Below are positions 18,851 through 54,305 of a DNA stretch of 54,305 nt, in pieces. The notes under the pieces were generated by a model, which was not told where the DNA came from, did no database searches, and saw only the letters and a list, made by a program, of their open reading frames with translations. Each line of letters opens with the position of its first letter. Position 1 is the stretch's first letter. The position numbers and the translations under genes were made by a program. The stretch is from a virus (Duplodnaviria > Caudoviricetes): IMG/VR virus record IMGVR_UViG_3300035660_000014, positions 1 to 54,305 of that record; one strand, written 5' to 3'.

Positions 18851-19366
18851 TCACTCACGAACTTGGAGCGGGTAAGAGGTTGCCTCCAACCGGAGTTTCT
18901 CCGCGTTAGCCTGCATCAGGAGAGGTACATCGGTGTTGCCGAACCCCGGACCCCTTCTCCACTCCAATACCTCGTAGACCACACCACCGGGGAACTCGAA
19001 CTTGTCACCCGGACCCGCAACCATCACAACCTCCTTCGTTGTGGGGTCCTGAGTGGCAAGACCCACCTCGACGAGGTTGGGTACGGAGACGAAGAGGACC
19101 GCATCTCGGAGTTCCTCGATCCCGAACATTGTGAGAGGGTGGATCTGGTCCGCGGGAGCTACGTATGCCCTGAGGTTCACCACCTCTCCCCACCGCTTCA
19201 TGTAGAGGGGAACCTCGTCGTGGACCTCGTCTATCTCACCCTCAACTGGAGTTTGGAGGACCTGGTACGGGAGGAGTGGGAAGTACCTGTCACACCACTC
19301 CTTGACCATCTGGTAGGTGATGGTGATGTCGTAGATGTTGGCAAAGGTGGGGAAGCTAAACGGCAT
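18851..19366 (-). CDS. Putative head closure/neck protein (gp14-like)
   Basis: LTMFGIEELRDAVLFVS and PGDKFEF motifs; position in the neck region. Confidence 0.55.
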   Translation of the reverse strand: MPFSFPTFANIYDITITYQMVKEWCDRYFPLLPYQVLQTPVEGEIDEVHDEVPLYMKRWGEVVNLRAYVAPADQIHPLTMFGIEELRDAVLFVSVPNLVEVGLATQDPTTKEVVMVAGPGDKFEFPGGVVYEVLEWRRGPGFGNTDVPLLMQANAEKLRLEATSYPLQVRE

Positions 19367-25897: not shown

Positions 25898-27358
25898 TCA
25901 GGGGCCGAAAGCTCCCCCGGTCTGGGTCACGGTGCCAGTGCAGTACATGTTGGCGTTGACGACCTTGAGACCCGTCCTCTGCATCATCCCCTTCCTGGAG
26001 ATCATGTCGTCGAGGACGATGGTGGGGGTGACGTAGAGGGCGAGGTACGGTGCATAGATGTACCCCGTGTCGAGGAACGACGACCCCTTGAACCCCATCA
26101 GGAACGTGTTCCTCGCCATCGCGGGATCCTTGAACACGGCGAGGTCACCGAGTTCGCCGATCCTCCGGATGCCGACCACACTCGCTGCCGCACCCGCACC
26201 CGCGGATTTGAACTTGCTGAGGGTCTCGATGATGTCGCACACACCGATGCCCGCGACGACCCACGTCGCACTCCGCCGTTGCGTGGCCTGGAAGATGAGG
26301 TTCGACCCCTGGACGAACGCGTCGTAGAGGGACTCCTTATGCCAGATCCACGGAACGTTCACGGGAGGTGTCCTGTCCCACGTCACCGTACCCGCACCAG
26401 CGATCTGCTGGATGTGACGAACGATCTGGTAGTTGACCTCCTTCTGGATCTCGTTCGCCATAAAGGCGGTCACCTCGACCTCGGCGTTGATTCCGTGATA
26501 GGCCTCGAAGTCCTGCTGCGCCTCGATGGACCACCTCGCACGGAGCTTCCTGGGTCTCGCCGTGACGGGACTCGAGGTCAACAGGAGGTCGACTTCGGGG
26601 ATGTCGGTGTTCGCCTCCATGTTGTACTCGTACGAACAGGTGATCGCCGCACCAGCAGCGGGAGCGTTGGCGAACGTGCCGTTATACACACCGTTGGCGT
26701 AGTTGATCGTGTTCACGCCACCGGGGTTGACGTTGCCGACCAGCGCACCGTTCCCGTTGTCGACCACCTCCTGCGTCCCGTCGGTGAACTTCACCGTTCC
26801 CGCACGGACCGGGATGTGAGCGAGCGCACCGGTGCTACCGGCGGTCACACCGTCACCAGTGCCAACCGCCTCCTCCTCCACCACCTCGTCGGTGTAGTGG
26901 GTGTCGGCGGGGGCACCTGCACGGACGTCAAACATCCGCGAACCACGAGCGATCCGTCCCTTCTGGGTCCCATAGAGGACATCCAGATAGAAGACCAACC
27001 CTGTGGGTGCTGTGAGGGGTTGGACGGTGACCAACTCGTTTGCCACCAAGTTGGCGAACACCGCACGGATGAGAGGGAAGACGAACTTCTCGAACGACCC
27101 CACGTGGACCAACCTGGTGGTCTCGTCGAGACCCCGCAACCACTTCATCGAGTTCTCGAGGAGGATAGCGAGAGTCGCCCTAAGGTGTTCCTTGTCCTCA
27201 GGGATACCCTTCAGGAAGTCCACAGTCTTGTGCCGGGAGAACCCACGGATTGCGGAACCCGGCATGCTGCTCCACCTCTCCGCGAGTCGGACACCTATGG
27301 CGCGTGATTCCTCGAGGAGCGCCAAGTGGTCTCCCACGAGTTTGGGTTGCTGTTCCAT
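25898..27358 (-). CDS. gp23: Major capsid protein (T4 gp23-like) with an inserted beta domain
   Basis: LAILLEN, PLIRAVFANLVANELVTVQPLTAPTGLVFYL, VTARPRKLRARWSIEAQQD, GYIYAPY; AAGGAG RBS. Confidence 0.96.
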   Translation of the reverse strand: MEQQPKLVGDHLALLEESRAIGVRLAERWSSMPGSAIRGFSRHKTVDFLKGIPEDKEHLRATLAILLENSMKWLRGLDETTRLVHVGSFEKFVFPLIRAVFANLVANELVTVQPLTAPTGLVFYLDVLYGTQKGRIARGSRMFDVRAGAPADTHYTDEVVEEEAVGTGDGVTAGSTGALAHIPVRAGTVKFTDGTQEVVDNGNGALVGNVNPGGVNTINYANGVYNGTFANAPAAGAAITCSYEYNMEANTDIPEVDLLLTSSPVTARPRKLRARWSIEAQQDFEAYHGINAEVEVTAFMANEIQKEVNYQIVRHIQQIAGAGTVTWDRTPPVNVPWIWHKESLYDAFVQGSNLIFQATQRRSATWVVAGIGVCDIIETLSKFKSAGAGAAASVVGIRRIGELGDLAVFKDPAMARNTFLMGFKGSSFLDTGYIYAPYLALYVTPTIVLDDMISRKGMMQRTGLKVVNANMYCTGTVTQTGGAFGP

Positions 27359-27420: not shown

Positions 27421-28776
27421 TCAAAAGCCTCTCTGGAACAACCTCTCGATTAGGGTGGTGCCACCCTTGCCCTTGTCCACTGAGACGTCCACTCCTCTCA
27501 CCCCTTCCGCGGGATCCACCAGCCTTGTCGCCGGTACCGCGGGTGGAGTGGTGGGTTGTCTCGACTCCCGAACGGTGGTCTTCGCGCCCCTGGTGCTGGG
27601 TCCCTTCAGTGGGAGACCCTTACACCTAAGGCGTAGTTCCTCGGTGATTTCCTTCAGTGCACCGTAACGGCGCTCACGAAGGAGTCTCAACCTCTTCTCC
27701 TCCCTTGCCCTCGTGAGGAGACTGTCCGCAAGCATGGTCGTCGCAGTTAGTCGCTTCTCGAGGACCTTCCTCTGACGGACCCTCTGGAGGAGTTCTTCGG
27801 CAATCGCCGTGGTTACGTTGAGTCGTTTCCTGAGGTCACCCTCTCGGGGAGGACCCATGGGGTGTGCCCTCGCGACAGCCAACTCGGATGCCAACGACTC
27901 AACCAGGTCAACCACTTGCTTGTCCATCGCTATCGCTCCGCGTTTGGGGTTCGGTGGGGACACCTTGTTAGGTACCAACCCACGCAGGTTCCGTTCCCTC
28001 AACACTTTTACCACCTTCTTGGAGGACTCCAGGAGTCTTTCCTTATAGAGGTTGGGCGAACTACCGAGTGCCCTCGAGGTGGACGCTAGGTGGCTACCCA
28101 GTTCGACCAGCGCTAGAGTGTCCACACCCGAGAGGTCACCACCCACCCTCTCGACCAACTCCTTCGCACGATTGAGGAGCGACGTGTGGGTGGACTTCTC
28201 GGACACAACAGGTGTGGGGTATGCGTAGTCGACAGAGGGTTGGTAGACACAATCCCAGGTGTCACAGTCGTAGTTGTCCTCCACGATATCTACGTCACCT
28301 TCCTTGTGAGTGTCCCCTCTACCCCTAGACGAGATACCAATAGGAACTCCACACGCGTGGAGTTCCTGGAGGATCTTCCCCCTCGGCGTGTCCAACACCA
28401 TATACTCACCCAGCACATACTTCCCCGCGGGAACACCGTACTCGTTCCCCTCCTCGAGGAACTCCATCCACGCCTTCTCCACCAAGTGGGAGACCCTCTC
28501 GAGGTGGGTGATACCCGTATCGGGGTGCTCGAGTTCGCCTAGCGCGAGTCTCGCTCGGACCCTCTTCTGGAGTGGCGAGTCGGGTGAGAGGTTCCTATTC
28601 CACACACTCTCGGGGTAGACTCGGTTGTTGGCGTTCTTGACCCCCACCATCTGGAACACACCCCGAGCGCGAAGTCTATCGCTCAAGGGTGGTTTAGCCC
28701 TCTCGATCACCACGTGGTGGGACACCAGCGGGTGGTCTCTCTCAACCAATTGCCGCGGTGAAGACGTGCTCGCCAT
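27421..28776 (-). CDS. gp21: Prohead protease (T4 gp21 family) fused to a coiled-coil scaffold-like C-terminus
   Basis: GVFQ...KNANNRVYP, ALGELEHP, VSH, LDTPRGKIL, GISSRGRG, TWDCV.QPS; helical Arg/Leu-rich C-terminal half. Confidence 0.92.
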   Translation of the reverse strand: MASTSSPRQLVERDHPLVSHHVVIERAKPPLSDRLRARGVFQMVGVKNANNRVYPESVWNRNLSPDSPLQKRVRARLALGELEHPDTGITHLERVSHLVEKAWMEFLEEGNEYGVPAGKYVLGEYMVLDTPRGKILQELHACGVPIGISSRGRGDTHKEGDVDIVEDNYDCDTWDCVYQPSVDYAYPTPVVSEKSTHTSLLNRAKELVERVGGDLSGVDTLALVELGSHLASTSRALGSSPNLYKERLLESSKKVVKVLRERNLRGLVPNKVSPPNPKRGAIAMDKQVVDLVESLASELAVARAHPMGPPREGDLRKRLNVTTAIAEELLQRVRQRKVLEKRLTATTMLADSLLTRAREEKRLRLLRERRYGALKEITEELRLRCKGLPLKGPSTRGAKTTVRESRQPTTPPAVPATRLVDPAEGVRGVDVSVDKGKGGTTLIERLFQRGF

Positions 28777-29041: not shown

Positions 29042-29418
29042 TATAACCCCGCTCCTTGGGGTCCCCGTGGGGGAAACTGCGACAACACCACGAGAACACC
29101 CTCCTCCACCCCAGGATTCACGGTAACCTGGAGGTACCTTCTGCGCGTTTCAAACAGGATCGCTTCCTGGCCGAGACCCGTTATCCTCTTCGTCAAGAGA
29201 CCCCCACTCGCAGTGTCACTGAACAACAGAACCGACCAAGTCACCCCATCGTCACTGTCTTGGAGGGAGAGGTCGATGGGGGTAGCGGAGAGGTTGTGTG
29301 CGTGCAAACTCATCCCACCGAAGTGGGTAACGGGGAGTTCGCCCCCGTCTACCACGTACAACCCTGTGGGTCCAACCACAAACCTCGACCTCTCAACTAC
29401 GACTTCGGGTTCGGACAT
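29038..29418 (-). CDS. Small beta-sandwich virion-type protein (paralogue of 42733..43083)
   Basis: NLSATPIDLSLQDSDDGVTW...RRYLQV. Confidence 0.55.
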   Translation of the reverse strand: MSEPEVVVERSRFVVGPTGLYVVDGGELPVTHFGGMSLHAHNLSATPIDLSLQDSDDGVTWSVLLFSDTASGGLLTKRITGLGQEAILFETRRRYLQVTVNPGVEEGVLVVLSQFPPRGPQGAGLY

Positions 29419-43717: not shown

Positions 43718-45376
43718 TCAATCCACGTCAGCCCACTTCATGCAGGTCTGCAAGAGGTGATTGTAGTCACCACCCATCGCGTCGTCAAGGAACAACTTGA
43801 TCTCCTCCGGTTTGTATCCCGCCTTCCTGAGTGCAACACGCATCTTCCCGAGGAGGGCGAAAGCGTTGCCGTCGGTACCCACGAGTCTCACCCTAGGTCG
43901 TCTGGGGTCGGTTTCAGGGTTGAACGCTCCGGAACCAGTGGGTGTAGGTTCACCCTCCTGTTCTCTTGGTGTCTTCGTGATCACGTCATCACCCACAATG
44001 TCCTTGCCACATGCCGCGCAGTGTGCATCGCCTCCCGGCAGGAAACTCACTTGGTCGGAACCGCAGTAGGGACACTCGAACGCGGGTTCACCTCCTTGCT
44101 CCCTTACCCGATGGAGCAGACCCGACCGTTCGTCCAGCAGTTTGTCCACACCAGCTTCCAAACCCTTATCGAGGGTAGCCTGGACAACTGCGTCACTCAC
44201 ACCACGTCGGGTGAAGGGTGTGCGACCCTCACTCGAGTGGTGGAACTTGTCCTGGTACATGTCACGCATAGCCTTCGTGGGTTCCTTGTGTGGGTCGCCC
44301 ACATCGACGTCGTGCTCGATTTTGAGTATCTCGGCAGCGCGTTCACGGCCCGCACGGATGTCCGCCCTGTCACCATAGTAGTTCTCGTCCTCACACGCGA
44401 GGACGAACGCCACATCGGGAGGGACACCGTTACGGATCGCCCTTAGAGTCTTGGGTATGATGTATCCCAACCCCCGCTCGGGATCCGTGGGTTGCTCACG
44501 AAGTCTGGAACGACCTTCCCGCTGTGTTGCCTTCGCGAGTTGCTGGACCTTCACCGTCGCACCTTTCAGGTTGAGGATCGAGGGATGTGTGGTTCCTCCA
44601 CCCACATACTCCTTCCCGACGAGGAACGAGGAGTGAGCCTTGAACCACCCCATGTCGTCGGGGTCTCTAAGTTTGACCTCCTCGATGGGGATCTCCACAC
44701 GGACGAGGAACTTGTCGGGTGTGTCCTCGTCAAAGGGAACCACGGAAGCCTTCCACGGGAGGGTTACACTGTTCAACACCTCACCCATACTCAACCTCAC
44801 CTTTTCGGCTTCCTCCTGTGTACCGAACGCTGCGGTGAGTCGTTGTTCCTTCGTCACCCACCTGAACTGTGCGGGGTCGACCGGAGGACGGCGAGAGGGG
44901 AGGTACACGTCGCCTCCTTGTTCACCTACTGTGTGGGGTTCCTCCTCAGGAGGGACCTCTCCTGTTGAGGGTTCGCCCACCGAATGGGGTTCCTCAGGTG
45001 GCGGTTCGGGTAGAGGTTCCTCAGCGGGAGGGAGTTCGACCGGAGGGGTCAAACTCACCTTCGGGAGGTTCGTGGTCAACTCCTTCACCAGGTCGAAGAT
45101 CGCCTGCCCGGTAACCTCACTAGGTGTCCCATCACCGAGTCTCCCAGCCAACGCTTGCTGCCACACCGAGTCCTCCACGTTGGCTACCACACTGGGGTCG
45201 AGCTGGACACCCAGTTCGCCGATCGCGGTGCCCACTCTTTGGAGGACCCAGTCGTGGACTAGACCCTCGGTGACACCCTTTCCCTTCGGGCGACCCTCGA
45301 TGGGTTCGCCACAGGAGAGGATGCTCTCCAACGCACTTGTCTCGCCTTCACCCAACAGGTCTTTCGGGTTCGGCAT
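43718..45376 (-). CDS. Acidic mosaic multidomain protein (putative polyprotein)
   Basis: Domains separated by LREQ, VDKLLDE, VREQ and PREQ; Zn ribbon CPYC/CAAC; C-terminal module VRLVGTDGNAFALLG...GDYNHLL. Confidence 0.7.
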   Translation of the reverse strand: MPNPKDLLGEGETSALESILSCGEPIEGRPKGKGVTEGLVHDWVLQRVGTAIGELGVQLDPSVVANVEDSVWQQALAGRLGDGTPSEVTGQAIFDLVKELTTNLPKVSLTPPVELPPAEEPLPEPPPEEPHSVGEPSTGEVPPEEEPHTVGEQGGDVYLPSRRPPVDPAQFRWVTKEQRLTAAFGTQEEAEKVRLSMGEVLNSVTLPWKASVVPFDEDTPDKFLVRVEIPIEEVKLRDPDDMGWFKAHSSFLVGKEYVGGGTTHPSILNLKGATVKVQQLAKATQREGRSRLREQPTDPERGLGYIIPKTLRAIRNGVPPDVAFVLACEDENYYGDRADIRAGRERAAEILKIEHDVDVGDPHKEPTKAMRDMYQDKFHHSSEGRTPFTRRGVSDAVVQATLDKGLEAGVDKLLDERSGLLHRVREQGGEPAFECPYCGSDQVSFLPGGDAHCAACGKDIVGDDVITKTPREQEGEPTPTGSGAFNPETDPRRPRVRLVGTDGNAFALLGKMRVALRKAGYKPEEIKLFLDDAMGGDYNHLLQTCMKWADVD

Positions 45377-45638
45377 CTGTCGTTCCTCCTTCGTCCCTCA
45401 GTAGTTCCTCGAGAGTGCCACGGAGGTCATCCAAAGGGAGGGACAACCTTTTGTTGGCCAACTTCGAGGTCGCTTCCGTAACCTCGAATTTTCTGGAGCA
45501 GATGATGCAGGTTGCCTCACCGGGGAGGACCTTATAGGGTCTCCCGCTCTCGTACGCGGGTGTGACGATGATGTTCCCACAGTGGGGACACCTCAGGTCA
45601 CCCAAACACGTCACCTCCGCACTGAGTCCGTTCCTCAC
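45348..45638 (-). CDS. Zn-ribbon protein
   Basis: CPHC and CIIC pairs; overlaps both neighbours. Confidence 0.6.
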   Translation of the reverse strand: MRNGLSAEVTCLGDLRCPHCGNIIVTPAYESGRPYKVLPGEATCIICSRKFEVTEATSKLANKRLSLPLDDLRGTLEELLRDEGGTTDAEPERPVG

Positions 45639-46054
45639 TGACTCTCTCCTATGGTGGAAACAGGTTCGGGTTGCTGCGTGAGGATGGGTGGGTACCCATG
45701 CATGCGTGCGATGTCAACGTACCGCTTGAACCTCCGTGCGGAGTCGAGTTCGCACATGATCTCGTTCCAGATGGCCTTGTAGGCGTAGGTTGAGAACTTG
45801 ACTCTGGTGGGGTCGAACTCACCCGAGACTGCTTTCTTCGCAGCCTTTATCAACCCCACCAGACCGATCTGGACGAGGTCCTCGTAGGCGTACCCGTACT
45901 TCATCCCGAGGGCGACGTACTTCTTCGCAACGCTGTGAGCGAGACCCATGTGGTCGGTGATGAGTTTGAACTCATCGACCCCGGCAACCTCCACTATGTG
46001 GTCCACGATTCCCTCCCATGTGAGTTGTACCCTCTCGTGTGGTCTCACGCGCAC
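45635..46054 (-). CDS. Sigma-70 family region-2-only protein
   Basis: HMGLAHSVAKKY...EDLVQIGLVGLIKAAK...FDPTR.VKFSTYAY..I; ends without a region 4 HTH. Confidence 0.8.
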   Translation of the reverse strand: MRVRPHERVQLTWEGIVDHIVEVAGVDEFKLITDHMGLAHSVAKKYVALGMKYGYAYEDLVQIGLVGLIKAAKKAVSGEFDPTRVKFSTYAYKAIWNEIMCELDSARRFKRYVDIARMHGYPPILTQQPEPVSTIGESQ

Positions 46055-46066
46055 ACCTCATCTTAT

Positions 46067-46095
46067 ATTATATGGTCTCACCCTCAAGGAATCAA
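46067..46095 (-). promoter_or_regulatory. sigma70-type promoter upstream of the sigma-like gene
   Basis: Minus strand reads TTGATT-17 nt-TATAAT (46095-46090, 46072-46067), followed by a GAGGTG RBS. Confidence 0.75.
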
Positions 46096-46360: not shown

Positions 46361-46651
46361 CTACACGGAGTGGATATCCACCATCAGGGAGTCCTGTCCC
46401 GCCATGGCGTGGGTACAGTCGGGGAGGAACTTTATCACGCCGTCCGTCACTGTCAGGTGGCACACCTTCCCGGCACCGTCTATCGGGTACCTCACCACGA
46501 GGGAGGGCGAGAAAGTTGGTCTCTCGAGGTCACAGTTGAAGGTCCACTCGGTAGAGAACTTGTGGTGGAACCCACACGCGGGACAGAAGAATACCCACCC
46601 GGTCAAGGTACCCGCTGCGTCCCGAATCGCTTGGACCTTGGGAGAGGTCAC
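46361..46651 (-). CDS. DUF6527-like Zn-binding protein
   Basis: GTG at 46651 overlaps the upstream TGA; FFCPACGFHH...WTFNCDLERPTFSPSL...CH..VTDG.I.FL.DCTHAMAGQ. Confidence 0.7.
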   Translation of the reverse strand: MTSPKVQAIRDAAGTLTGWVFFCPACGFHHKFSTEWTFNCDLERPTFSPSLVVRYPIDGAGKVCHLTVTDGVIKFLPDCTHAMAGQDSLMVDIHSV

Positions 46652-46944
46652 CTCTGGATGCTCCTGAGTAGGGTCCTCAACCTCTCCAGCACCAAATAAG
46701 TCACACCCAACTCCTCCCACACGGCGTCTCTCACCTTGGGACCCAACTTCTTGTCGTGTAGGTACCCCGAGAGTTCCTTCACCCTCGACTCCACCCAATG
46801 GAGTGAGTCCCTCGCGGAGGTACCGACGTTCTGAACATACTCCTTGTCGACCTTCGGAGACACCATGTCGGGTGAGGGTGGTGGCACACACCCACCCTCT
46901 AGCAACTCGTCCACCAGTTCGGTGATCTTACTCGACCTGGACAT
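46648..46944 (-). CDS. Small protein with N-terminal tag motif
   Basis: MSRSSKITELVDELLEG (ATG at 46944). Confidence 0.6.
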   Translation of the reverse strand: MSRSSKITELVDELLEGGCVPPPSPDMVSPKVDKEYVQNVGTSARDSLHWVESRVKELSGYLHDKKLGPKVRDAVWEELGVTYLVLERLRTLLRSIQR

Positions 46945-47184: not shown

Positions 47185-47445
47185 CTACCAACTAAGCGTG
47201 TGCTCGTCCCTACTGTCCTCCCAACCCAACTTGTAGGCCTTTTCAAGAGCACGCTTCACGATGATCCTCGCTTGGTCGTAAACGGGACCAAACAATGCTG
47301 GGTCGTGGTGCACACCCACCCATTGGGCAATTTCCTCCGCAGTACAAATCGCCAAACTGTTGGGAACGAACCGACTAGGTCCACCCTCTTGCTCGCGAAC
47401 GAGGTTGTCGACCACTTGTTTGACCGTTCTGGGGTCCACCATCAC
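47185..47445 (-). CDS. Small protein with N-terminal tag motif
   Basis: AGGAG RBS; MVDPRTVKQVVDNLVREQ. Confidence 0.7.
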   Translation of the reverse strand: MMVDPRTVKQVVDNLVREQEGGPSRFVPNSLAICTAEEIAQWVGVHHDPALFGPVYDQARIIVKRALEKAYKLGWEDSRDEHTLSW

Positions 47446-47451: not shown

Positions 47452-47937
47452 CTACCACGTCGACTCGAAGTTCCTGCCACCCCTCGGGAAGGTGATCATC
47501 CTGCCACCACCCACCTGGTTGAGCTTCATTCCCACCAACTCCTCCAACGCGGCGTGAACCTGTGGTGCGATTGCCGCTTCCATCGTCTCCCTGTCGTAGT
47601 CGAGTTCGAACTCGACGTCGTCGGTCGGTTCCTTTGTCTTGACGTCCACGTGGAGGGACTTCCTAACACGAGCCGTAACCGGGATGGTAACCGAGAACGT
47701 GAGTTCACCAGCGTCCTCCGAACCCGCGTAGAGGATCCTATGGCCACCCTTCGTAAGGAGACCAGAGGGTTCACCTGTTGCCCACGGACGAGTGGGAACA
47801 GGTTCCTCAGAGTCCGGAGGTGGGATGAGTTTGCGACCGTGCGTCCGCAAACGTGGGGTTGGTGAGGGATCCTGTGTGGGTGACTCCTGTTCACCCACCA
47901 GACGGTCAACCGCCTTCCGGATCTCGTTACGTGCCAC
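47452..47937 (-). CDS. Protein with N-terminal tag motif
   Basis: GTG at 47937 after AAGGAG; MARNEIRKAVDRLVGEQ. Confidence 0.7.
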   Translation of the reverse strand: MARNEIRKAVDRLVGEQESPTQDPSPTPRLRTHGRKLIPPPDSEEPVPTRPWATGEPSGLLTKGGHRILYAGSEDAGELTFSVTIPVTARVRKSLHVDVKTKEPTDDVEFELDYDRETMEAAIAPQVHAALEELVGMKLNQVGGGRMITFPRGGRNFESTW

Positions 47938-50900
47938 TTTTCGGCTCCTTACCCGGTTCGTACTCGGGTGGTTGGTGGGAGAAGTTGAGGTTCGGCGTCT
48001 CACCCGTTACGTTGGTCCACATCTGGGAGAACTCCTCCGCCTTCTCCTGGGTAGTGAATTCTATGGCGACGGTGTTGAGGTTCACGTCGTCCACCACAAC
48101 CTTCCCACCGTGGTCCTTCACTAGAGTGTCGAACTGCTCGGGTACCGCGAGTCTCTTGTGCCGAGCGACCCACACTGTGGGTTTCTCGTCCTTCTTGGGT
48201 GGTGTAGGTTCACCCTCCTGTTCCCTCACCTGTCTGGTGGACTCCTCCTTGCGGGGACCGAACTTGCTACACGCGGGTTGGTCTCCCTTCACGTCGGTGG
48301 AACCGGAGTCGGGGTTCGAGCACTTACCCCAACCCTCCCTCTGAGGGTTCGACCCGTAGTAGACACACTTCGAGTGGATTGCGGGACCTTGTTCGGCTAG
48401 GACCTTGTCGACTGCCCGTTCGATGGCATCCCCAACCCCGTGGGGTGGAACTCCACTGAGTGGTTCCTCAGGAGGGTTACCACCCTCCGCAGCCATGTCC
48501 TCCATGCTCGGTAGGTCGCTCGCGTTGGGCGAGATCGCGAACGTGTACCACCTCGGACCCTCGTCCGTCCCGTACATCATCGCAAAGTATTGTATCCCCT
48601 CGGTGGAGTCGACCTTTCCCCTCAGGTAGTACAAGTTCTGGGGACGAAATTGCGCAATTGGGTCCTCCATGATGTCAACATGTGTGATCTCGAAGGAACC
48701 GCGACGTCCAGCACCTAACGCGTCACCAGCACCCAGGAGGGTGTCCTTGTCGAACGGGTCCTTGTAGTCCAACCACAACGCGAGTTTGTCGCCCAAGGGG
48801 TGGTCGGCCGTGATCTCGACACGTTCTCCCAACCGAGTGGGTTGGTCCACAAGCTGGTGGAACCCACACGACTTGCACTCTACAACTCCCACCTCGGGTC
48901 TGTCCTCAAGAGGAGTAACCTCAACGTTGGTGGACTTACACCGCGAGCACCTCTCACTCTTAACCTTCCCCCTCTTGCCCTTCCGTTTCATCTTCGCCTT
49001 GCACTTGGTGCACGTCACCTCGTTGACGTCCGAGGTGACGAGGTACGTGGGCGACCTACGACCGAGGTCGCCACTGGTGTCGCACAGTGTCTTACCTGAT
49101 CCGGTCTTGAGGTGGACAACCTCGGTCTGGAGAGACTCGAGAGGCGGAGGTTCCACACCACGACTCACGCTCTTCGTCCCTCCACGTGCGACCAATAGGC
49201 CTCTCACATACTCCCTCACCTGGTGCAGTGCACGAGAACGGCTAGCGGAGTCCTGGTACTTGTATGGGACCTCCGCGACACTCTCTTTGGCATCGGTGTC
49301 GGGGTCCCACTTCGAGACGACCAGTTCGCCACCGTTGTCGTAGATAGCGTAAGTCGTCCCGTCGTTAGCTTTGTAGGTGGGTTTGAGGGCCTTCCAGTTG
49401 GGTCCAACCGTGTGTGCTGGGTCGACGTCCTCTTGTGGCTCACCCAACACCTTGTCGACAGCACTCTCGATGGAGTCCTCGTCACTCCACCTCTTTGTCG
49501 GCTTACATTCGTAAACCGAGTAGGGGACACCGAGACGTTGGACTACCCTGAGTGCTTTCTCCTGAGACTCGGTGTCGGGAAACTCCATCTGCACCCTACC
49601 GGAGGTCTTGTCGATGTCGAACCTGCTCGGTTGGGCACCCGCGTCGGCGAGTTCCTCCTTGACCGAACCCACCAGGTCGAGGTCGGTGAACTCGAAGTCG
49701 ATGCCCTCCCGCTTCACCGACTCACCGGGACCTTTGGTCTGGTCGAAGTTACCCTCCCACTTGCAGGTTGGACACCGAGCGTGACCTTGGAAGAACTCCA
49801 GCGGGTGTCTACAGGTGGGACAGAGGAGGGTCCCCGACTCGTCCACACTTTGAAGCTCGCGCAAGATATCATGTGCGAGCTCACGGATCTCCTCTTCCTC
49901 CTCAGGTGTGGGTGCCACACCACCTGACTTGTTGTGAAACCTACCGTGAAGCGACCTGATGATGGGTGCTACCTCGTCCTCACCCTGAAACGCGGCAACA
50001 AGGTCGCGGAAGTCTGCCGCCACAACCTCACCCCGCATATCGTCGACAAGAAACTCCTCCAACCGCTTCGGTCTCCGGATGAGTGGCACAAGTTGCTCGA
50101 GTGTGAGGGTCTCCTCGTCCGCCCTGGGAGTGTAGATCCCTGTGAGGGACTCCTTAAGGGTCTCCGCCTTGGGTTCCTCGTAGTGTGCCTTCTTGTCCTC
50201 CCCGATGGAGAGGAGACCCAACCTGGAGGGCAACTTGTCGGAGGGGGAGGACCTAAGGCGCTTGACAACCTCGTCAACTGGTTCGCCAAACGCAAAAGAG
50301 GCGATGACAAACTCCCTAAGGTGACCGAACGAGAACCCGTCCGTCTTCTTCACGAGGTCGTCAATGGCCTCGTCCTCGACCACACCCTTGAGTTTGTGGC
50401 TGAGGTACGCCTTCCTTCCCTCGGCAGGAAGCGTACCGAAGAAGACCTTCCTATCGAACCTCCCCGGACGGAGCAACCTCGGAGGGAACTTCTCTATGTA
50501 GTTCGTGCTCCCGAGGTAGAGGACGTTGTCGACGCTGTTGTCACCGTCTAGGAGTTGCAACAGGGAGTGCTCGCTGTAGCCCACATACTCGTCCAAATCC
50601 TCGAGGACCACGACAACCTTCCTATCGGGTTCGACCTGGCGGAACGCCTTGAGACACTCGATAAGGCTGCTGAGGTCGCGAGCGAAGAACACCACGTCAC
50701 CTCTCTTGATCATCCTCTCCGCGACCTGCTGGATGAGACATGACTTTCCTGTCCCAGGAGGGCCGTAAAGGAGGATGCCTCTGTTGTGGAGGAACCCGAG
50801 CTTCTGGAAGTTCGGCTTGAGGGTCCAGAACGTAGTGACCTCAGCGATGACCTTGTCCATCGCGGTGTTCGGGAACTCGAGGAGCTCGTCCGTCCTCGGT

Positions 50901-51133
50901 TTCACCTTGATGAACTTCGGTCCCTCACAGGTGGTGACCACCTTGTAACCGAACTCCTGGAGTGCGGGACTCAGGACGACGGGACCGACTGGGCTGAATT
51001 CGTTCCCGTCCCTCACGTACTGGGTGTAAGCACGTTTGAGGACCTCGTCACCGGGTGAGCACTCAGTGGACTTGGGAGAGCCAAACCCCTCGGTCAACGG
51101 GTCGACCGCTTTCTTGATCTCGTCGCGTGACAT
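47927..51133 (-). CDS. Giant mosaic protein: AAA+ ATPase followed by Zn ribbons and small alpha/beta modules (putative polyprotein)
   Basis: ATG at 51133 after AGGAG; MSRDEIKKAVDPLTE; Walker A GILLYGPPGTGKS, Walker B VVVLEDLD, SRH LLRPGRFDR; internal SIESAVDKVLGE and AIERAVDKVLAEQ. Confidence 0.85.
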   Translation of the reverse strand: MSRDEIKKAVDPLTEGFGSPKSTECSPGDEVLKRAYTQYVRDGNEFSPVGPVVLSPALQEFGYKVVTTCEGPKFIKVKPRTDELLEFPNTAMDKVIAEVTTFWTLKPNFQKLGFLHNRGILLYGPPGTGKSCLIQQVAERMIKRGDVVFFARDLSSLIECLKAFRQVEPDRKVVVVLEDLDEYVGYSEHSLLQLLDGDNSVDNVLYLGSTNYIEKFPPRLLRPGRFDRKVFFGTLPAEGRKAYLSHKLKGVVEDEAIDDLVKKTDGFSFGHLREFVIASFAFGEPVDEVVKRLRSSPSDKLPSRLGLLSIGEDKKAHYEEPKAETLKESLTGIYTPRADEETLTLEQLVPLIRRPKRLEEFLVDDMRGEVVAADFRDLVAAFQGEDEVAPIIRSLHGRFHNKSGGVAPTPEEEEEIRELAHDILRELQSVDESGTLLCPTCRHPLEFFQGHARCPTCKWEGNFDQTKGPGESVKREGIDFEFTDLDLVGSVKEELADAGAQPSRFDIDKTSGRVQMEFPDTESQEKALRVVQRLGVPYSVYECKPTKRWSDEDSIESAVDKVLGEPQEDVDPAHTVGPNWKALKPTYKANDGTTYAIYDNGGELVVSKWDPDTDAKESVAEVPYKYQDSASRSRALHQVREYVRGLLVARGGTKSVSRGVEPPPLESLQTEVVHLKTGSGKTLCDTSGDLGRRSPTYLVTSDVNEVTCTKCKAKMKRKGKRGKVKSERCSRCKSTNVEVTPLEDRPEVGVVECKSCGFHQLVDQPTRLGERVEITADHPLGDKLALWLDYKDPFDKDTLLGAGDALGAGRRGSFEITHVDIMEDPIAQFRPQNLYYLRGKVDSTEGIQYFAMMYGTDEGPRWYTFAISPNASDLPSMEDMAAEGGNPPEEPLSGVPPHGVGDAIERAVDKVLAEQGPAIHSKCVYYGSNPQREGWGKCSNPDSGSTDVKGDQPACSKFGPRKEESTRQVREQEGEPTPPKKDEKPTVWVARHKRLAVPEQFDTLVKDHGGKVVVDDVNLNTVAIEFTTQEKAEEFSQMWTNVTGETPNLNFSHQPPEYEPGKEPKSGT

Positions 51134-51146: not shown

Positions 51147-51392
51147 CTAGTCACCACCCATTCCGGCAACCGATTGCACGTCTTGCAGAATCCGGTCCAG
51201 GTCGTTGAGTAGTGCTTGACCTGAACCTAGATTGATGTCCCTGTCGATGAGACTCACCAGATGGTCGAGCGCATGTTTGATCTCCCCCACCTTGGCTACC
51301 ACCTCGTCGTAGGGTTGTGATCCACCACCCTCGGGTGGTCCCTGTTCACCCACCAACCGGTCGACCGCTTTCTGGATCTCGTTCTTTGCCAT
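51147..51392 (-). CDS. Small protein with N-terminal tag motif
   Basis: GAGGT RBS; MAKNEIQKAVDRLVGEQ. Confidence 0.7.
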   Translation of the reverse strand: MAKNEIQKAVDRLVGEQGPPEGGGSQPYDEVVAKVGEIKHALDHLVSLIDRDINLGSGQALLNDLDRILQDVQSVAGMGGD

Positions 51393-51404: not shown

Positions 51405-54305
51405 CTACCAACCCTGACCACCTAGTGGGTAACCGGGTTGTGGATACCCACCCTGCACTTGCCTACCCTGGTCCCTCGTGTGAGGTCTCAACTTCGCCAA
51501 CAGCGCCTGGGCAACTGTGGGTGCTTCGTGAGTGGGTAGCAGACGACGAACGTGCCTCAGATACGCTGCTGCAGCCTCTATCCCAGCGGAGTCGACCTCA
51601 CGGAGAAACTCCTCGCACTCGGGGGTTGTGAACGAGTACCAGTCACCGTGAGGTGTCTTAACGTCGGTCTTCTCCTTGAGGATTTGGTCGACCGCCCCCT
51701 CGATGGATTCCTCCTCGGGTGCGTATTGCGCGGGACGGAGTTTCAGGTAAGCCTTCCCACCGAGTTTCCTCACACGCGACCTGAACTCCTCCGCTTTGTC
51801 GCTCGGAACGAGGAACTCGATCCATCCCACGCTGTGACCGGTAACCCTCCCACCGAGTTCCTTCGCGATCACCTCCAGGTTGGTGAGTGCGTCGTCAGGT
51901 GGTATGGTAGGGGTGATGTCCTTCGTGAGCACGGAGAACCGGGACTCGGTGGTTGGTTCACCATTGTCGGGTTGGTAGAACTCTTCCACACCACCTTGGT
52001 AGTAGCAGTCGTTGCAACGAATTATTGTCCCCTCTTCGGGGTCGTTGACGTCCATTAGGCTAGAAGACCCACACCTCGGGCAGGTACCCTGCTTCTGCTG
52101 CTCCACTTCGGTGGTTGAACCTCCTTCCTCACCGAGGACCTCATCTGGGTTAGCGACTCCCAGATCCATAAGTTTCGCTCTCAACTCCTCAACGGGTTCA
52201 CCCGCTTCCTTCGCACGTGAGTACTGGTCCAACAACCCAACCACACGCTCATACCAGGGGAGACCTTTCGCCCAACTTGAAAGAGCGGAGCGACTGATAC
52301 CCGATCGCTCACTAGTCGGAATCACAAAACCGCAGTTGGGACACCTTCCGTGCTCGTCAGGTACGACCTGCTCGTCACACGCCTGGCACCGTACCGTGTT
52401 GGAGGGTTCGCGACGAGCTTCTTGTTTGTGATAACCCCTTACCGGTCTATCGAGTCCCGCACTGAACTTCATGTTCGTAGTTACGGGCACCTCCGTGTTA
52501 CAGATTCTACACTTCACGGAGGTTATCTTACCCGACTCGTCCGCTCGGTAACCCAACAAAAGAGGATCGGGGCACTTGCAACCCGCCTTCCTCAACATAC
52601 GTACCCATCTCTTCTGAACTGAGAGTTCTTCCTCCACTTTCGACTCGACTGTCAGCAAACCACCCACCTGCTCCGTGGACTTGAACGGTTCCTCGATCTC
52701 CATCGGGTTCCCGATCCCGTACAGGTCCGCTTCCACCTGGTCGATGTCGATCCTGAGGAGGGTAACAGGTTGTGCGTCCCCCGGGACGTCAGACTGACCA
52801 GCCAATACAACGTCAGTTACAACGCCCGGGAGGTGTCCACCACTCCCGTAGTAGAGATCTCTTACCATCACCTTATCACCCACGTGTACATCACTACCCC
52901 AAACACGCCTTGTGTCAAGGTCCTCCTCCCTTGGTTCCCGACCGATGTTCGTGACACCATAGTCGCTCAACTCCGACCGCCTGAAGCACATCCCGCAGTC
53001 GGCACAGCACCACTCGTCGGGGTCGCCAGGGGTAGGACGGAGTGGACCACCACACTTTGGGCAACGACTCTCCTTGAGGTTGTCCTCCCCCACAACCTCA
53101 CCAACCTGTTCCTCCACCCGATAGGAGAGTCCATGGTCGTCGAGGAGACGTTTCGCGCTCTCCAGGTCCTCAGGTGAGTGGAACCATATAATAGTGTGAC
53201 CGTCTTTGGAACCCTCGTCTTTGAACTCGAACCCTGCATCACCCAACACTCGGAAGGCTTGAAGGGAGTCGCCCTCGGGGATGGCCAACATCCGCTCGGG
53301 TTCGATGTGCCTAGCTTCCTTCACGTTCGCGTACAGTGCCGCGAGGTGCTTCTTTGCCTTCGCCTTCGAGGAGTGGGTTCCGTGAACCTTCCCTGTCTCC
53401 TTGTTGACCACCTTCCACTTGTCGCCATCCTGTTGGATCTCGTAGGGGTTCTCAGTGAGGAGGGACTCGGGCAACACGAAGGAGATGTGACGCAACCCCT
53501 TCTCGGTTTGTTGCATGAGCACCGTCCTATCCACACCACCATGCTTGACAGCCCGACCTATGGCTTCAACCGCGGCGTCGTAGTCACGACGAACTGCGAG
53601 GACTCGCACGGGGTTTTGGTTGTCGGGGTCGTCCACCTCTACCACTGCGTAGTAACCCATCGTGAGGTTTCGCAACTCGTCGTCCACAGTTGACCTGGTA
53701 GACTCAACAACACATGTGATGCCCGCAGCATCAAGAAGCTCGCGAGCGGCATCACGATCGTCCTGTGTGTGGAACGAGAAGACGGTACGTCCACCTATCC
53801 CCTCATCCTCGAACTCCAAACCAACATCACTCATCGCACGGGAGGCTTGGACAGCCTCCTCATCAGGAACGGAGAGGTCGAGGGAGAAGTACCCAACCTG
53901 CTCCCGGACACGTTGTTTCGACTCACCCTCTTTCAACAACCAGTTCACTACGTCACCGGTCTTTGACTCAAGATCGTGTCGCTGAGAAGACTTCCACTGC
54001 CTCAACTCCTTTCTCTTCCTGTTCAAGTCCCGTACTCGAGCGTCGTACTCCGCAGTCTGTCTGTCTTCCGGCGTCGTGTAGGTCTTACGAATCAGGTCCT
54101 CCATATCACAGATTTCCCTCTTGAGAGCATCTTCGTAGTCGTCCTGCTCCGTCTTCGACTCACCTTGCCCACCACGAGTGATCCGCTCGATCTCCGCGAC
54201 CACAGCATCCCAAGTGGCGAGTCCGAGGTGGGGTAGTTGCAAACCTACCCTCCTAGCAATCTCCTCGTGTTGGTCCTCTAGTGACCCGAACCCCTCGATG
54301 TCCTC
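51405..54305 (-). CDS. Giant acidic mosaic protein (putative polyprotein); frame open to the window edge, alternative TTG start at 54242
   Basis: At least 945 aa; four Zn ribbons, duplicated ~60-aa alpha/beta modules, SIEGAVDQILKE motif; no stop codon between 54242 and 54305. Confidence 0.8.
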   Translation of the reverse strand, partial: EDIEGFGSLEDQHEEIARRVGLQLPHLGLATWDAVVAEIERITRGGQGESKTEQDDYEDALKREICDMEDLIRKTYTTPEDRQTAEYDARVRDLNRKRKELRQWKSSQRHDLESKTGDVVNWLLKEGESKQRVREQVGYFSLDLSVPDEEAVQASRAMSDVGLEFEDEGIGGRTVFSFHTQDDRDAARELLDAAGITCVVESTRSTVDDELRNLTMGYYAVVEVDDPDNQNPVRVLAVRRDYDAAVEAIGRAVKHGGVDRTVLMQQTEKGLRHISFVLPESLLTENPYEIQQDGDKWKVVNKETGKVHGTHSSKAKAKKHLAALYANVKEARHIEPERMLAIPEGDSLQAFRVLGDAGFEFKDEGSKDGHTIIWFHSPEDLESAKRLLDDHGLSYRVEEQVGEVVGEDNLKESRCPKCGGPLRPTPGDPDEWCCADCGMCFRRSELSDYGVTNIGREPREEDLDTRRVWGSDVHVGDKVMVRDLYYGSGGHLPGVVTDVVLAGQSDVPGDAQPVTLLRIDIDQVEADLYGIGNPMEIEEPFKSTEQVGGLLTVESKVEEELSVQKRWVRMLRKAGCKCPDPLLLGYRADESGKITSVKCRICNTEVPVTTNMKFSAGLDRPVRGYHKQEARREPSNTVRCQACDEQVVPDEHGRCPNCGFVIPTSERSGISRSALSSWAKGLPWYERVVGLLDQYSRAKEAGEPVEELRAKLMDLGVANPDEVLGEEGGSTTEVEQQKQGTCPRCGSSSLMDVNDPEEGTIIRCNDCYYQGGVEEFYQPDNGEPTTESRFSVLTKDITPTIPPDDALTNLEVIAKELGGRVTGHSVGWIEFLVPSDKAEEFRSRVRKLGGKAYLKLRPAQYAPEEESIEGAVDQILKEKTDVKTPHGDWYSFTTPECEEFLREVDSAGIEAAAAYLRHVRRLLPTHEAPTVAQALLAKLRPHTRDQGRQVQGGYPQPGYPLGGQGW

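Follow-up and report, generated by a model that had tools for sequence, protein, structure and literature searches.

The open reading frame at the end of the window (the whole 54,305-nucleotide stretch of viral DNA analysed here), referred to as ORF A, encodes a protein in which small autonomous modules are strung like beads; its phage is an uncultured, distant T4-superfamily myovirus known from metagenomic contigs. A run of neighbouring genes carries a 16-17-aa helix, (N)EIxKAVDxLVGEQ, that is new in this analysis. Quite possibly, this helix is a T4 CTS-like propeptide targeting its carriers to the prohead core, accompanied by Glu-specific processing of the cargo proteins; this is the reading tentatively preferred here.

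Modular architecture of ORF A

A sequence-only reading of this DNA had claimed a giant ORF resembling a polyprotein of small modules. The ORF is real, and its 5' end is open, as the record stops at that point; the complete form, identical in sequence, exists in the database as the 1337-aa protein P0001. ORF A is a chain of ~14 small modules that includes three ferredoxin-like paralogues (FL1-FL3), four zinc ribbons, and one widespread 45-aa phage module. The modules measure 29-92 aa, a broader range than the 40-70 aa first suggested. Residue numbers refer to the part within the window unless stated as full-length.

51405..54305, minus: ORF A, 966 aa, the C-terminal part of a 1337-aa multi-module protein
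53931..54158, minus: helical hairpin module, aa 50-125; long helices in the AlphaFold model, pLDDT 86-97 (aa 51-110)
53898..53909, minus: junction QRVREQ (VREQ at aa 133-136), within the low-pLDDT segment 123-138
53703..53891, minus: ferredoxin-like FL1, aa 139-201; paralogue of FL2, E 1.5e-11
53463..53699, minus: module M2, aa 203-281; homologues stand alone as 84-87-aa proteins
53448..53462, minus: junction LLTE|N, aa 282-286; the Met of stand-alone homologues aligns with N286
53313..53450, minus: NPYE...ALYAN module, aa 286-331; widespread small phage module, pLDDT 98
53106..53294, minus: ferredoxin-like FL2, aa 338-400; from paralogy and the AlphaFold model
52941..53072, minus: zinc ribbon 1, aa 412-455; CPKC415/CADC434, pLDDT 82-95
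52635..52910, minus: module aa 466-557; shares homology with P0013 (N-terminal part)
52467..52634, minus: helix and zinc ribbon 2, aa 558-613; homologous to P0050 (114 aa), CKC576/CRIC599
52314..52400, minus: zinc ribbon 3, aa 636-664; CQAC640/CPNC655, AlphaFold model
51996..52082, minus: zinc ribbon 4, aa 742-770; CPRC742/CNDC764, paralogue of zinc ribbon 1
51756..51938, minus: ferredoxin-like FL3, aa 790-850; with the next helix it resembles ORF B 526-586, E 7e-4
51660..51716, minus: internal leader-like helix EEESIEGAVDQILKEKTDV; helix 865-879 in the AlphaFold model
51471..51665, minus: C-terminal helical module, aa 881-945, from AlphaFold, with a G/P/Q-rich tail after it

Among 1.84 billion representative proteins, no full-length relative of ORF A was found and matches occurred at the module level only: 79 matches reached E<=1e-3, none of them full-length (0/79), and one, P0002, proved to be an artefact. 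Four modules (M2, NPYE, 466-557 and 558-613) have homologues standing alone or in different combinations. For M2, these are P0004 (87 aa), P0007 (84 aa) and P0003 at its C-terminus, and a homologue is a stand-alone gene in locus L004; P0004 and P0007 begin 1-2 residues from VVES|T and stop a few residues short of LLTE|N. Folded alone, M2 reached a pLDDT of 73 and had no fold match in the PDB. The NPYE module accounts for 73 of the 79 matches, including 31 proteins of <=101 aa, and matches phrog_3684 (1e-8) and phrog_6742 (a 91-position profile), which bears out its supposed resemblance to a small stand-alone phage protein. In 59 of these 73 proteins the match begins at residue 2-4, placing the Met opposite N286, right after LLTE285. 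The ends of stand-alone homologues hence coincide with the junctions VVES|T and LLTE|N for two modules. NPYE-module homologues also occur in fusions, e.g., P0028 (portal and ADP-ribosyltransferase) and P0067 (DUF2213). Module 466-557 shares 40% identity with P0013 over 89 aa (pairwise E 6e-14), and both finish with GG(L/F)LT(V/I)E.

The FL1 model shows a beta-alpha-beta-beta-alpha-beta order with pLDDT 73-84. The two modules that had been quoted as homologous are true paralogues (full-length 515-572 versus 711-769, phmmer E 1.5e-11 in a 13-protein set), while a third copy of the repeat is weak (full-length 165-214, E ~0.01). Likewise, the four predicted Zn ribbons were recovered as four Cys4 signatures in the window part; ribbon 1 weakly matches the ribosomal S27ae zinc ribbon and is related to ribbon 4 (full-length 770-820 versus 1097-1147, E 1.3e-4). 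No Pfam family was detected in the 1337-aa protein at E<=0.01, the window part giving sub-threshold zinc-ribbon matches only, and no embedded peptidase or MuF/portal/virion-type packaging or delivery domain was found in ORF A. The AlphaFold model consists of small confident domains separated by low-pLDDT linkers, with a pTM of 0.35. Of the earlier suggestion that once-independent small genes were concatenated and are released by proteolysis, the first part stands in that modules occur independently elsewhere; release by cleavage is a proposal from sequence. The locus is a clear fusion of stand-alone small phage genes, even if the leader described below is not a loading tag.

Junction motifs

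All eight tetrapeptides previously quoted as junctions are present in the 966-aa part (VREQ 133, VVES 199, LLTE 282, VKEA 328, VEEQ 397, LKES 410, TVES 552 and TTES 785), and each lies within 3 aa of a low-pLDDT segment. The general x-x-E pattern is at chance level: [VLIT].E occurs 28 times in ORF A versus 25.2 expected, a level reached by 295 of 1000 shuffles. The narrower [VLIT].E[SQA] is enriched ~2-fold (9 observed versus 4.0 expected; 13/1000 shuffles reach 9), with eight of its nine sites at predicted domain edges. The h-x-E-Q pattern, picked post hoc, has 12 sites within the 3180 aa of the gene cluster versus 8 sites within 12960 aa of the rest of the window (Fisher p 8.6e-5). Such strings, e.g., QRVREQ, are found in inter-module linkers, and R/Q-VREQ appears again in P0001 (N-terminal part), in ORF B and in the 552-aa ORF o552.

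A leader helix shared by neighbouring genes

A run of genes, comprising A, C, B, five small ORFs and o552, shares a common 'grammar', and a further multi-module ORF, o691, lies in the structural region.

51147..51392, minus: ORF C, 81 aa; N-terminal leader MAKNEIQKAVDRLVGEQ
47927..51133, minus: ORF B, listed as 1080 aa; from its likely start, leader MSRDEIKKAVD
47452..47937, minus: 161-aa ORF; leader (V/M)ARNEIRKAVDRLVGEQ
47185..47442, minus: 85-aa ORF; degenerate leader MVDPRTVKQVVDNLVREQ, 4.4 bits
46928..47164, minus: 78-aa ORF; leader MARNEIENAVDSLVNEQ
46651..46944, minus: 97-aa ORF; degenerate leader MSRSSKITELVDELLEGG, 1.7 bits
46114..46350, minus: 78-aa ORF; leader (V/M)AKGEVARAVDKILGNGQ
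43718..45376, minus: 552-aa multi-module ORF (o552); LEAGVDKLLDE and junctions VGEQGG, LREQP, VREQGGEP
19356..21431, minus: 691-aa multi-module ORF (o691), structural region; motif copies DEVVDGLLGEQ, TTVDRLVDELVDE, VERVVDGLFGE

The leader is an amphipathic helix with the consensus (N)EIxKAVDxL(V/L)xEQ, followed by a Gly/Pro/Glu-rich stretch. It is located at the extreme N-terminus of five ORFs and is degenerate in two more, all being consecutive neighbours, and the likeness among its carriers (C, B and three small ORFs) is limited to the first 20-35 aa. The five N-terminal leaders score 27-37 bits against the leader HMM, whose seeds they are. Shine-Dalgarno-like strings lie 6-10 nt upstream of six of the seven leader-ORF starts; the DNA upstream is not conserved, and synonymous differences occur inside the leader. 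A strict DNA pattern for VDxLxxEQ matches the window five times, each time on the coding strand, and has no match in controls. ORF B, which probably starts at ATG 51133, contains a classical AAA ATPase domain, zinc ribbons and ferredoxin-like modules, and o691 has a borderline NTP_transf_2 (nucleotidyltransferase) match of 20.5 bits against a cut-off of 21.

Leader-like copies also occur internally, at some module boundaries of the giant ORFs, including two in ORF B (at aa 570 and 919 in its 1080-aa listed form). Individually, these are non-significant, scoring 0.6-9.9 bits versus 2.9-10.0 for the best of each of 20 shuffled sets; the copy in ORF A, EEESIEGAVDQILKEKTDV, gave 0.6 bits and lacks significance by itself. 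A ferredoxin-like module precedes the internal copy in both A and B, the two being repeated together as one unit, and the copy may be part of that unit instead of leading the next module. No clear leader was found at the N-terminus of full-length A (P0001). A search of 5.8e9 proteins with the leader-alignment profile, with 8000 candidates scored, returned only the window's own proteins and one unrelated eukaryotic protein, and in the nearest record by capsid protein (60% identity), which is 19% complete, A/B relatives and the motif are absent.

Head machinery and the scaffold position

The phage encodes T4-type head proteins, including the prohead protease that the sequence-only reading had invoked, here an S77 (T4 gp21-type) enzyme.

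27421..28776, minus: prohead protease (Peptidase_S77, aa 14-193) with a ~250-aa helical extension; Pfam and PHROG; directly upstream of the capsid gene
25898..27358, minus: gp23-type major capsid protein; Pfam and PHROG

Pfam matches were Gp23 at 3.7e-58 and Peptidase_S77 at 5.8e-12, with PHROG assigning a major head protein and a head maturation protease; the ~250-aa extension of the protease is presumed to be the scaffold. In all five aligned gp23-type capsid proteins, hydrophobic-x-E-(A/S/T) is located 15-30 aa ahead of the conserved core, reading GLDE|TT in this phage and FLTE|AEIGG in T4, and the putative specificity of this S77 protease is read from these capsid propeptides.

A blind scan of all IMG/VR contigs with the pattern E-I-x-x-A-V-D-x-L-x-x-E-Q identified seven loci. 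In six of these, the motif ORF is the scaffold-position (gp22) gene, directly upstream of a gp23-type capsid gene, and three of the six have an S77 protease gene upstream of that ORF. In L006-L009 and L011, E-I-K-x-A-V-D-x-L-L-x-E-Q and an acidic stretch are found at residues 34-58 of the scaffold-position ORFs, and in Flavobacterium phage immuto a homologue of the L006 motif ORF lies between the genes annotated as 'prohead core protein serine protease' and capsid. The seventh locus carries an N-terminal leader, MSHDEIKRAVDKLLGEQEP, ~4 kb downstream of a T4-type portal gene. In both the IMG/VR matches and the window, D, E, P and G abound in the stretch that follows EQ, a feature outside the search pattern.

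Capsid loading and its alternatives

In the preferred reading, the leader helix would be derived from, or mimic, the N-terminal region of a gp22-position scaffold protein and cause the protein bearing it to assemble together with the scaffold core. Cleavage by the S77 (gp21-type) prohead protease would follow, after the Glu in L-(V/L)-x-E|Q and probably also at further hydrophobic-x-Glu sites where linkers are exposed (e.g., LLTE|N, LTVE|S and VREQ). Giant proteins would enter as a single unit and be trimmed or diced to small modules within the capsid, and the pieces would pass into the host together with the DNA. The potential payload comprises zinc ribbons, ferredoxin-like domains, the AAA ATPase of B and possibly the nucleotidyltransferase of o691; by analogy with T4 internal proteins, a role in host takeover or counter-defence may be guessed. 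Against capsid loading, the gene cluster lies ~20 kb from the head genes and beside a sigma-factor-like gene, no sign of late expression of the cluster was found, and an AAA ATPase of ~1000 aa is unusual as capsid cargo. It could further be speculated, although this seems rather unlikely, that the scaffold-copied 16-aa peptide is a universal loading tag on at least 10 cargo proteins, including two polyproteins of >1000 aa, which the gp21-type protease would dice within the capsid into at least a dozen small, folded effectors to be injected with the DNA.

Alternatively, A, B and their neighbours may be uncleaved cytoplasmic multi-domain proteins, e.g., early host-takeover or regulatory hubs, a conceivable if somewhat doubtful explanation. 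Here, the helix would be a docking or oligomerisation element joining its carriers or bringing them to the AAA ATPase of B, and the h-x-E-Q/GP-rich strings would be normal flexible linkers. The distance from the head genes, the adjacent sigma-70 region-2 protein gene with its strong sigma-70-like promoter, the classical AAA domain, the chance level of generic x-x-E and the weakness of the internal motif copies all agree with this, as does the description of multi-domain 'polyvalent' phage proteins, in passages of PMC5512222, as not requiring cleavage. However, the motif is exactly N-terminal and has a flexible stretch after its final Glu-Gln, as is typical of a removable propeptide; scaffold-position proteins bear the same motif in 6/7 IMG/VR loci; and the phage has head machinery of the T4 type, where leaders of this sort are established (in the relevant parts of PMC9026906).

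The shared motif might instead be a historical trace with no targeting or cleavage function, the small ORFs and giant-ORF segments being diverged tandem paralogues or recombinants at a repeated gene-start cassette, and the giant ORFs arising from stop-codon loss between cassettes. Leader copies do sit in consecutive genes, three leader pairs reach 72-80% nucleotide identity, and modular shuffling at gene boundaries is documented for T4-type genomes (portions of PMC2839356). Yet, this appears improbable, as the remaining leader pairs are 46-70% identical with synonymous changes and unconserved upstream DNA, the likeness ends abruptly past 20-35 aa, and the motif occurs in scaffold-position genes of unrelated, lower-GC phages, which argues for selection on the leader peptide. 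At most h-x-E-Q sites the next residue is G, E or P (EQ|GG, EQ|GP, EQ|EG), and EQ|G sites recall the Gln|Gly sites of picornavirus-like proteases; a cut after Gln (x-E-Q|G) by a separate 3C/NIa-kind protease would imply a true polyprotein independent of the capsid. This is very improbable, since A, B and the scanned ORFs yielded no protease domain of this type (42% of the genome covered) and known prohead proteases of this clan cleave after Glu (according to sections of PMC10052503 and PMC9026906). Finally, the record is a metagenomic contig whose end truncates the ORF, and an assembly or frameshift artefact could have merged separate genes. That the identical 1337-aa protein is known from another contig (30.9 kb; three member sequences), that the frame is open over 2.9 kb with all module homologies in one frame, and that B, o552 and o691 have the same architecture makes such an artefact extremely unlikely.

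If the leader is a scaffold-mimicking tag, T4-like phages would recruit new capsid cargo by borrowing a piece of scaffold. As a loading tag, it would show small accessory genes fusing into giant ORFs with delivery kept, offer a second natural targeting peptide, unrelated in sequence, for engineering protein-loaded phage capsids, and give a concrete reading for many annotation-free giant ORFs of metagenomic phages. The universal-tag version, if true, would mean that a dsDNA phage naturally delivers proteins through a modular system based on polyproteins.

Comparison with known systems

The strategy had been described as little known in dsDNA phages, which overlooks two bodies of work: the polyvalent-protein paper (passages of PMC5512222), and studies of T4 and giant phages on CTS propeptides and multiple prohead-protease cuts (parts of PMC9026906, PMC5694885 and PMC10052503). 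As set out in passages of Iyer et al. 2017 (PMC5512222), polyvalent proteins are large phage proteins fusing 2-15 disparate domains also found solo, are predicted to be delivered with DNA, and have been proposed to be processed by peptidases, with an analogy drawn to RNA-virus polyproteins. ORF A is alike in joining several disparate domains that occur solo, and P0028, a homologue of its NPYE module, fuses a portal with an ADP-ribosyltransferase in the polyvalent manner. However, ORF A lacks the hub domains at Pfam level (zincin metallopeptidase, ART, kinases, GNAT, NTase, helicases, ParB and primases), with AAA in B and the borderline NTP_transf_2 in o691 among its neighbours; it has no embedded peptidase, its modules are far smaller (29-92 aa), and the prohead protease, with a scaffold-like leader as guide, is the proposed agent of release.

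In phages with Gp21-related proteases, as parts of PMC10052503 and PMC5694885 report, gp21-type enzymes cleave after the Glu of a short motif, often at multiple sites per substrate; SPN3US gp53/gp54 and phiKZ inner-body proteins are cut in this way after the Glu in a 3-residue motif, and N-terminal sequences are common to paralogous protease substrates of phiKZ-like giant phages. There, long propeptides are degraded and one mature domain is kept, whereas for ORF A many folded modules would be freed; in addition, the window protease matches S77 best in Pfam, not S80. Compared with gp22-type scaffolds, ORF A is not a scaffold protein, and its similarity to scaffold-position ORFs is confined to the motif; T4 gp22 itself has ...ASVALDSIFES... 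near its N-terminus, a weak likeness to the leader motif by eye.

A close parallel is drawn with the internal proteins of T4 and with Alt, which reach the prohead core via 10-20-aa N-terminal propeptides removed by gp21; CTS-like leaders occur on diverse proteins of related phages, and the CTS has been explicitly proposed as the means by which T4-like phages load varied proteins (sections of PMC9026906, PMC5694885 and PMC3012670). Similar to IPI, IPII, IPIII and Alt, a short N-terminal peptide is common to otherwise unrelated proteins, the phage encodes a gp23-type capsid protein together with a gp21-type protease, the peptide ends in hydrophobic-x-Glu, a putative cleavage site (L-(V/L)-x-E-Q in most window copies), and the diverse carriers are grouped in variable regions. 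The N-terminal copy is on C, B and three small ORFs, whereas A itself has only an internal, individually non-significant one, and for the giant multi-module ORFs with their possible internal copies, packaging and cleavage are predictions. The window peptide, likened to the CTS by description, is 16-17 aa long with its own consensus, and it resembles the N-terminal region of scaffold-position proteins and is carried by 5-7 consecutive genes, including that of a ~1070-aa AAA-ATPase protein.

The giant ORF as a chain of small modules

The giant ORF at 51405-54305 (minus strand; here ORF A) is real and is interrupted by the end of the record, while an identical full-length form of 1337 aa (P0001) is recorded from a 30.9-kb contig. 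A sequence-only reading had described it as a concatenation of once-independent small modules, and this description is well supported by the ends of homologues, by module-level matches and by AlphaFold2 domains. All eight junction tetrapeptides named in that reading are present in A, the two modules quoted as homologous are paralogues (phmmer E 1.5e-11), with a weak third copy in the portion of A beyond the window, the four claimed zinc ribbons correspond to four Cys4 signatures, and the NPYE...ALYAN module, likened to a small phage protein, has matches among the PHROG families of small proteins.

A complete HMMER run with the 966 aa of A against 1.84 billion representative proteins (cut-off E<=1e-3) gave 79 matches, none of them a full-length relative; homologues match at the level of modules, and none keeps the full-length order. 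The NPYE module is covered by 73 of the 79, of which 59 start at their own residue 2-4 and 31 are at most 101 aa long, and in a 55-sequence alignment the Met of the matches aligns with N286, the residue directly after LLTE285. For module M2 (aa 203-281), stand-alone homologues of 87 aa (P0004) and 84 aa (P0007) were found, and P0003 carries a copy at its C-terminus. The stand-alone forms begin within 1-2 residues of VVES|T and end a few residues before LLTE|N, and the 87-aa form is a gene of its own in a low-GC phage contig (L004). The ends of stand-alone homologues thus coincide with proposed junctions at VVES|T (M2) and LLTE|N (NPYE). Further along, aa 466-557 match the N-terminal part of P0013 with 40% identity, GG(L/F)LT(V/I)E closing both, and aa 558-613 match a 114-aa protein (P0050).

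Some candidates were set aside. P0002 (1845 aa), the top match of A, consists of perfect tandem copies of a lipocalin fragment that gather many weak partial matches, and was therefore discarded as an artefact, evidently of assembly; P0006 and P0012, considered as two-module spans of A, align convincingly by eye in the NPYE part only.

The AlphaFold2 model of A, built on a shallow alignment (mean pLDDT 61, pTM 0.35), consists of small confident domains (pLDDT 75-98) alternating with low-confidence linkers, and none of the eight named junctions is more than 3 residues away from such a linker segment. Foldseek searches of the PDB with the whole model and with M2 returned nothing below E 1e-3 and generic ferredoxin/ACT-like folds only. 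The sole match in a PDB sequence search was a weak one to the S27ae zinc ribbon, and the ESM Atlas gave only unnamed small viral clusters for the NPYE module, at 0.88. No match was obtained by tblastn of A against GenBank phages, and neither A nor P0013 retrieved a locus from IMG/VR.

The proposed x-x-E junction motif rises above chance in its narrower form only. The broad motif [VLIT].E occurs 28 times in A (10.4% Glu) against 25.2 expected, a count reached by 295 of 1000 shuffles, whereas [VLIT].E[SQA] occurs 9 times against 4.0 expected (reached in 13 of 1000 shuffles), eight of the nine sites being at predicted domain edges. This enrichment and position are suggestive only, as about 40% of the residues of A lie in low-confidence segments and the border sites had been picked by eye.

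A leader-like motif at the start of neighbouring genes

A six-frame search of the window for AVD..[LIVM] revealed a helix motif of 16-17 aa, (N)EIxKAVDxLVGEQ, at the very start of several ORFs neighbouring A.

N-termini with the leader motif (minus strand)
51147-51392, ORF C, 81 aa: MAKNEIQKAVDRLVGEQGPP
47927-51133, AAA-ATPase ORF (B), from Met13: MSRDEIKKAVDPLTEG
ORF starting at 47937: ARNEIRKAVDRLVGEQESP
ORF starting at 47442, degenerate: MVDPRTVKQVVDNLVREQEGG
ORF starting at 47164: MARNEIENAVDSLVNEQ
ORF starting at 46944, degenerate: MSRSSKITELVDELLEGG
ORF starting at 46350: AKGEVARAVDKILGNGQ

A Shine-Dalgarno-like string lies 6-10 nt upstream in six of seven leader-ORF starts, and the DNA upstream shows no conservation. 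Leader pairs have 46-80% nucleotide identity with some synonymous changes, and the mutual similarity of the ORFs ends after 20-35 residues. The N-terminus of A itself, as seen in P0001, is without a clear leader. The leader alignment, used as a profile against 5.8e9 proteins (8000 candidates scored), returned the window's own proteins and one unrelated eukaryotic protein, and the closest relative as judged by capsid protein (L002/G001, 60% identity; a 43-kb record, 19% complete) contained neither relatives of A and B nor the motif. The 176-aa ORF listed at 46361-46891 (minus strand) is probably two genes in different frames: a 97-aa leader-bearing ORF (46651-46944) and a DUF6527/phrog_3362 gene whose GTG start overlaps the stop of the former.

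The string hydrophobic-x-E-Q, usually followed by G, E or P (e.g., QRVREQ, RQVREQEGEP, HRVREQGGEP), occurs 12 times in the 3180 aa of the cluster, that is, the consecutive leader-type genes including A, B and C. In the other ORFs of the window it appears 8 times over 12,960 aa (Fisher p 8.6e-5, the pattern having been selected post hoc). In a fragment of a different metagenomic phage (L003, 1-1479), SRIL(G/K)GEDP(K/R)R(V/L)L…L(V/T)EQ precedes a new module in each of two adjacent ORFs; this repeated junction string differs from that of the window, yet likewise ends in hydrophobic-x-E-Q.

Leader-like strings also occur inside proteins.

Inner leader-like strings
51405-54305, minus strand, A: EEESIEGAVDQILKEK
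47927-51133, minus strand, B: DSIESAVDKVLGEPQ, DAIERAVDKVLAEQGP
43718-45376, minus strand, 552-aa ORF: LEAGVDKLLDE
19356-21431, minus strand, 691-aa ORF: DEVVDGLLGEQ, TTVDRLVDELVDE, VERVVDGLFGE
Foreign protein P0013: DAIEDVVDGLLGEQEPP

Against a leader HMM built from the five clear N-terminal copies alone, the inner copies score 0.6-9.9 bits, within the range of the best scores from 20 shuffled six-frame sets (2.9-10.0), and hence they are not individually significant. In A and B, a ferredoxin-like module and the inner copy behind it are repeated together (E 7e-4), and the copy may be part of that repeated unit. The proposal that the C-terminal part of P0013 is a fused copy of ORF C was withdrawn, as BLASTP shows the motif alone in common.

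The motif in scaffold-position genes of other phages

All IMG/VR contigs were scanned with a degenerate DNA pattern of E-I-x-x-A-V-D-x-L-x-x-E-Q, which gave seven loci. In six of these (L006-L009, L011 and L012), the motif ORF is the next one upstream of a gp23-type capsid gene (tblastn E 1e-33 to 1e-37; Pfam Gp23 for L006), and L009, L011 and L012 also have an S77 protease gene farther upstream, giving the T4 order gp21-gp22-gp23 of prohead protease, scaffold and major capsid protein. The motif ORF of L006 is acidic and helical in composition, as are scaffold proteins, and over its C-terminal third it matches a Flavobacterium phage immuto protein whose gene is flanked by those of the major capsid protein and the "prohead core protein serine protease". 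In the seventh locus, L010, an ORF interrupted by the contig end carries MSHDEIKRAVDKLLGEQEP N-terminally and lies ~4 kb downstream of a T4-type portal gene. In the IMG/VR loci and the window alike, D, E, P and G are abundant in the stretch that follows EQ, a feature absent from the search pattern. The position upstream of gp23-type capsid genes makes the motif a feature of prohead-core proteins in T4-like phages. Judged by sequence, the window phage appears to have placed this prohead-core motif on many unrelated proteins.

Head genes and surrounding genome

The IMG/VR virus record, taken whole (54,305 bp), has a completeness rating of 42%, and its plausible genes are all on the minus strand.

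Head and tail genes
5904-8954, minus strand, baseplate wedge protein
15816-17342, minus strand, tail sheath
25898-27358, minus strand, gp23-type major capsid protein (Pfam Gp23 3.7e-58)
27421-28776, minus strand, 451-aa protease ORF directly upstream of the capsid gene; first 193 aa are Peptidase_S77 (T4 gp21-type)

Behind its protease domain, the S77 ORF carries a fused helical, charged extension of ~250 aa, taken to be the presumed scaffold, and no separate gene in the gp22 position precedes the capsid gene in the window. The extension contains AMDKQVVDLVESLASE, similar to the degenerate leader TVKQVVDNLVREQ. Its similarity to the L006 scaffold protein is not significant, and a complex prediction of the extension with ORF C scored 0.00, which counts neither for nor against. 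The capsid protein shares no more than 34% identity with that of any GenBank phage (top matches Listeria LIS04 and Bacillus SP-15), which puts the phage among the distant members of the T4 head-assembly superfamily.

Just upstream of the protease gene, a 188-aa protein (29393-29959, minus strand) has two zinc ribbons with a Pro/Glu-rich linker between them that resembles aa 110-147 of the 552-aa ORF (E 2.3e-4, in a small set). Between the head and tail genes, a 161-aa ORF (23124-23609, minus strand) starts with MGGTRSRLVEQEHPHPP, in which a very short h-x-E-Q string at the N-terminus gives way to a Pro-rich stretch. A 408-aa ORF (41045-42271, minus strand) consists almost wholly of Cys-x3-Cys repeats (…GCEVTCEVGCEVTCEV…CQNTCQLGGCE…) and has no PHROG or Pfam match; a 371-aa ORF on the opposite strand (41051-42166) overlaps it, and either strand could be coding.

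A possible route into the prohead

An N-terminal capsid targeting sequence (CTS) of 10-20 aa brings Alt and the internal proteins of T4 into the scaffold core, gp21 then cuts the CTS off after Glu, related phages have CTS-like leaders on different proteins, and it has been suggested that the CTS serves in evolution as a means of loading a variety of proteins (PMC9026906, PMC5694885, PMC3012670). Likewise, gp21-type proteases of giant phages are described as cutting after A/S-x-E, often several times per substrate (PMC10052503). By analogy, the leader would be a core-targeting propeptide cut at L-(V/L)-x-E|Q, while the giant proteins would be loaded as units and further cut at exposed hydrophobic-x-Glu sites in their linkers. 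Beyond the existence of the motif and its marking of scaffold-position proteins elsewhere, we infer every step of this route.

In 5/5 aligned gp23-type capsid proteins, an h-x-E-(A/S/T) string lies 15-30 residues before the conserved core, as GLDE|TT in the window phage and FLTE|AEIGG in T4. T4 gp23 matures at the Glu of the latter string; the T4 gp23 record goes no further than naming cleavage by gp21. The capsid strings and maturation at that Glu are consistent with a Leu/Val-x-Glu protease specificity.

The main rival explanation is that the giant proteins form an unprocessed multi-domain cytoplasmic family in which the common helix is a docking element. Several observations argue against capsid loading: the cluster lies ~20 kb from the head genes and adjoins a sigma-factor-like gene, A has no clear leader of its own, the inner copies carry little statistical weight, the motif is missing from the 43 kb of the nearest relative by capsid, and the large profile search led back to the window's own proteins. 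Set beside the scaffold-position motif ORFs of the other loci, a cytoplasmic docking role seems somewhat less likely than capsid loading, which we favour with reserve. As to transcription, the T4-type late promoter TATAAATA has 1 match in the window, on the wrong strand, and a sigma-70 scan gave 5 sites against 3.0 expected, one of them convincing. A near-consensus sigma-70-type promoter, TTGATT-17-TATAAT (46067-46095, minus strand), lies in the only sizeable intergenic gap, which divides the leader-bearing gene run from the downstream genes, a short distance upstream of the gene for a 139-aa protein that contains sigma-70 region 2 (45635-46054, minus strand; Pfam 2.4e-12).

Comparison with known systems

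In its predicted working, the locus would most closely resemble the T4 CTS and internal-protein system, and in architecture it resembles the "polyvalent proteins" of Iyer et al. (PMC5512222), who had already likened such proteins to viral polyproteins. The hub domains and embedded peptidases of polyvalent proteins are, however, absent from A. The locus is a clean member of neither class, packaging and cleavage of the CTS kind being predicted only. A literature search in general terms, supplements aside, found no account of multi-module proteins with a scaffold-like leader, which falls short of proving absence. We rate as new the scaffold-like leader sequence, its spread over 5-7 consecutive genes and its association with giant ORFs of very small modules.
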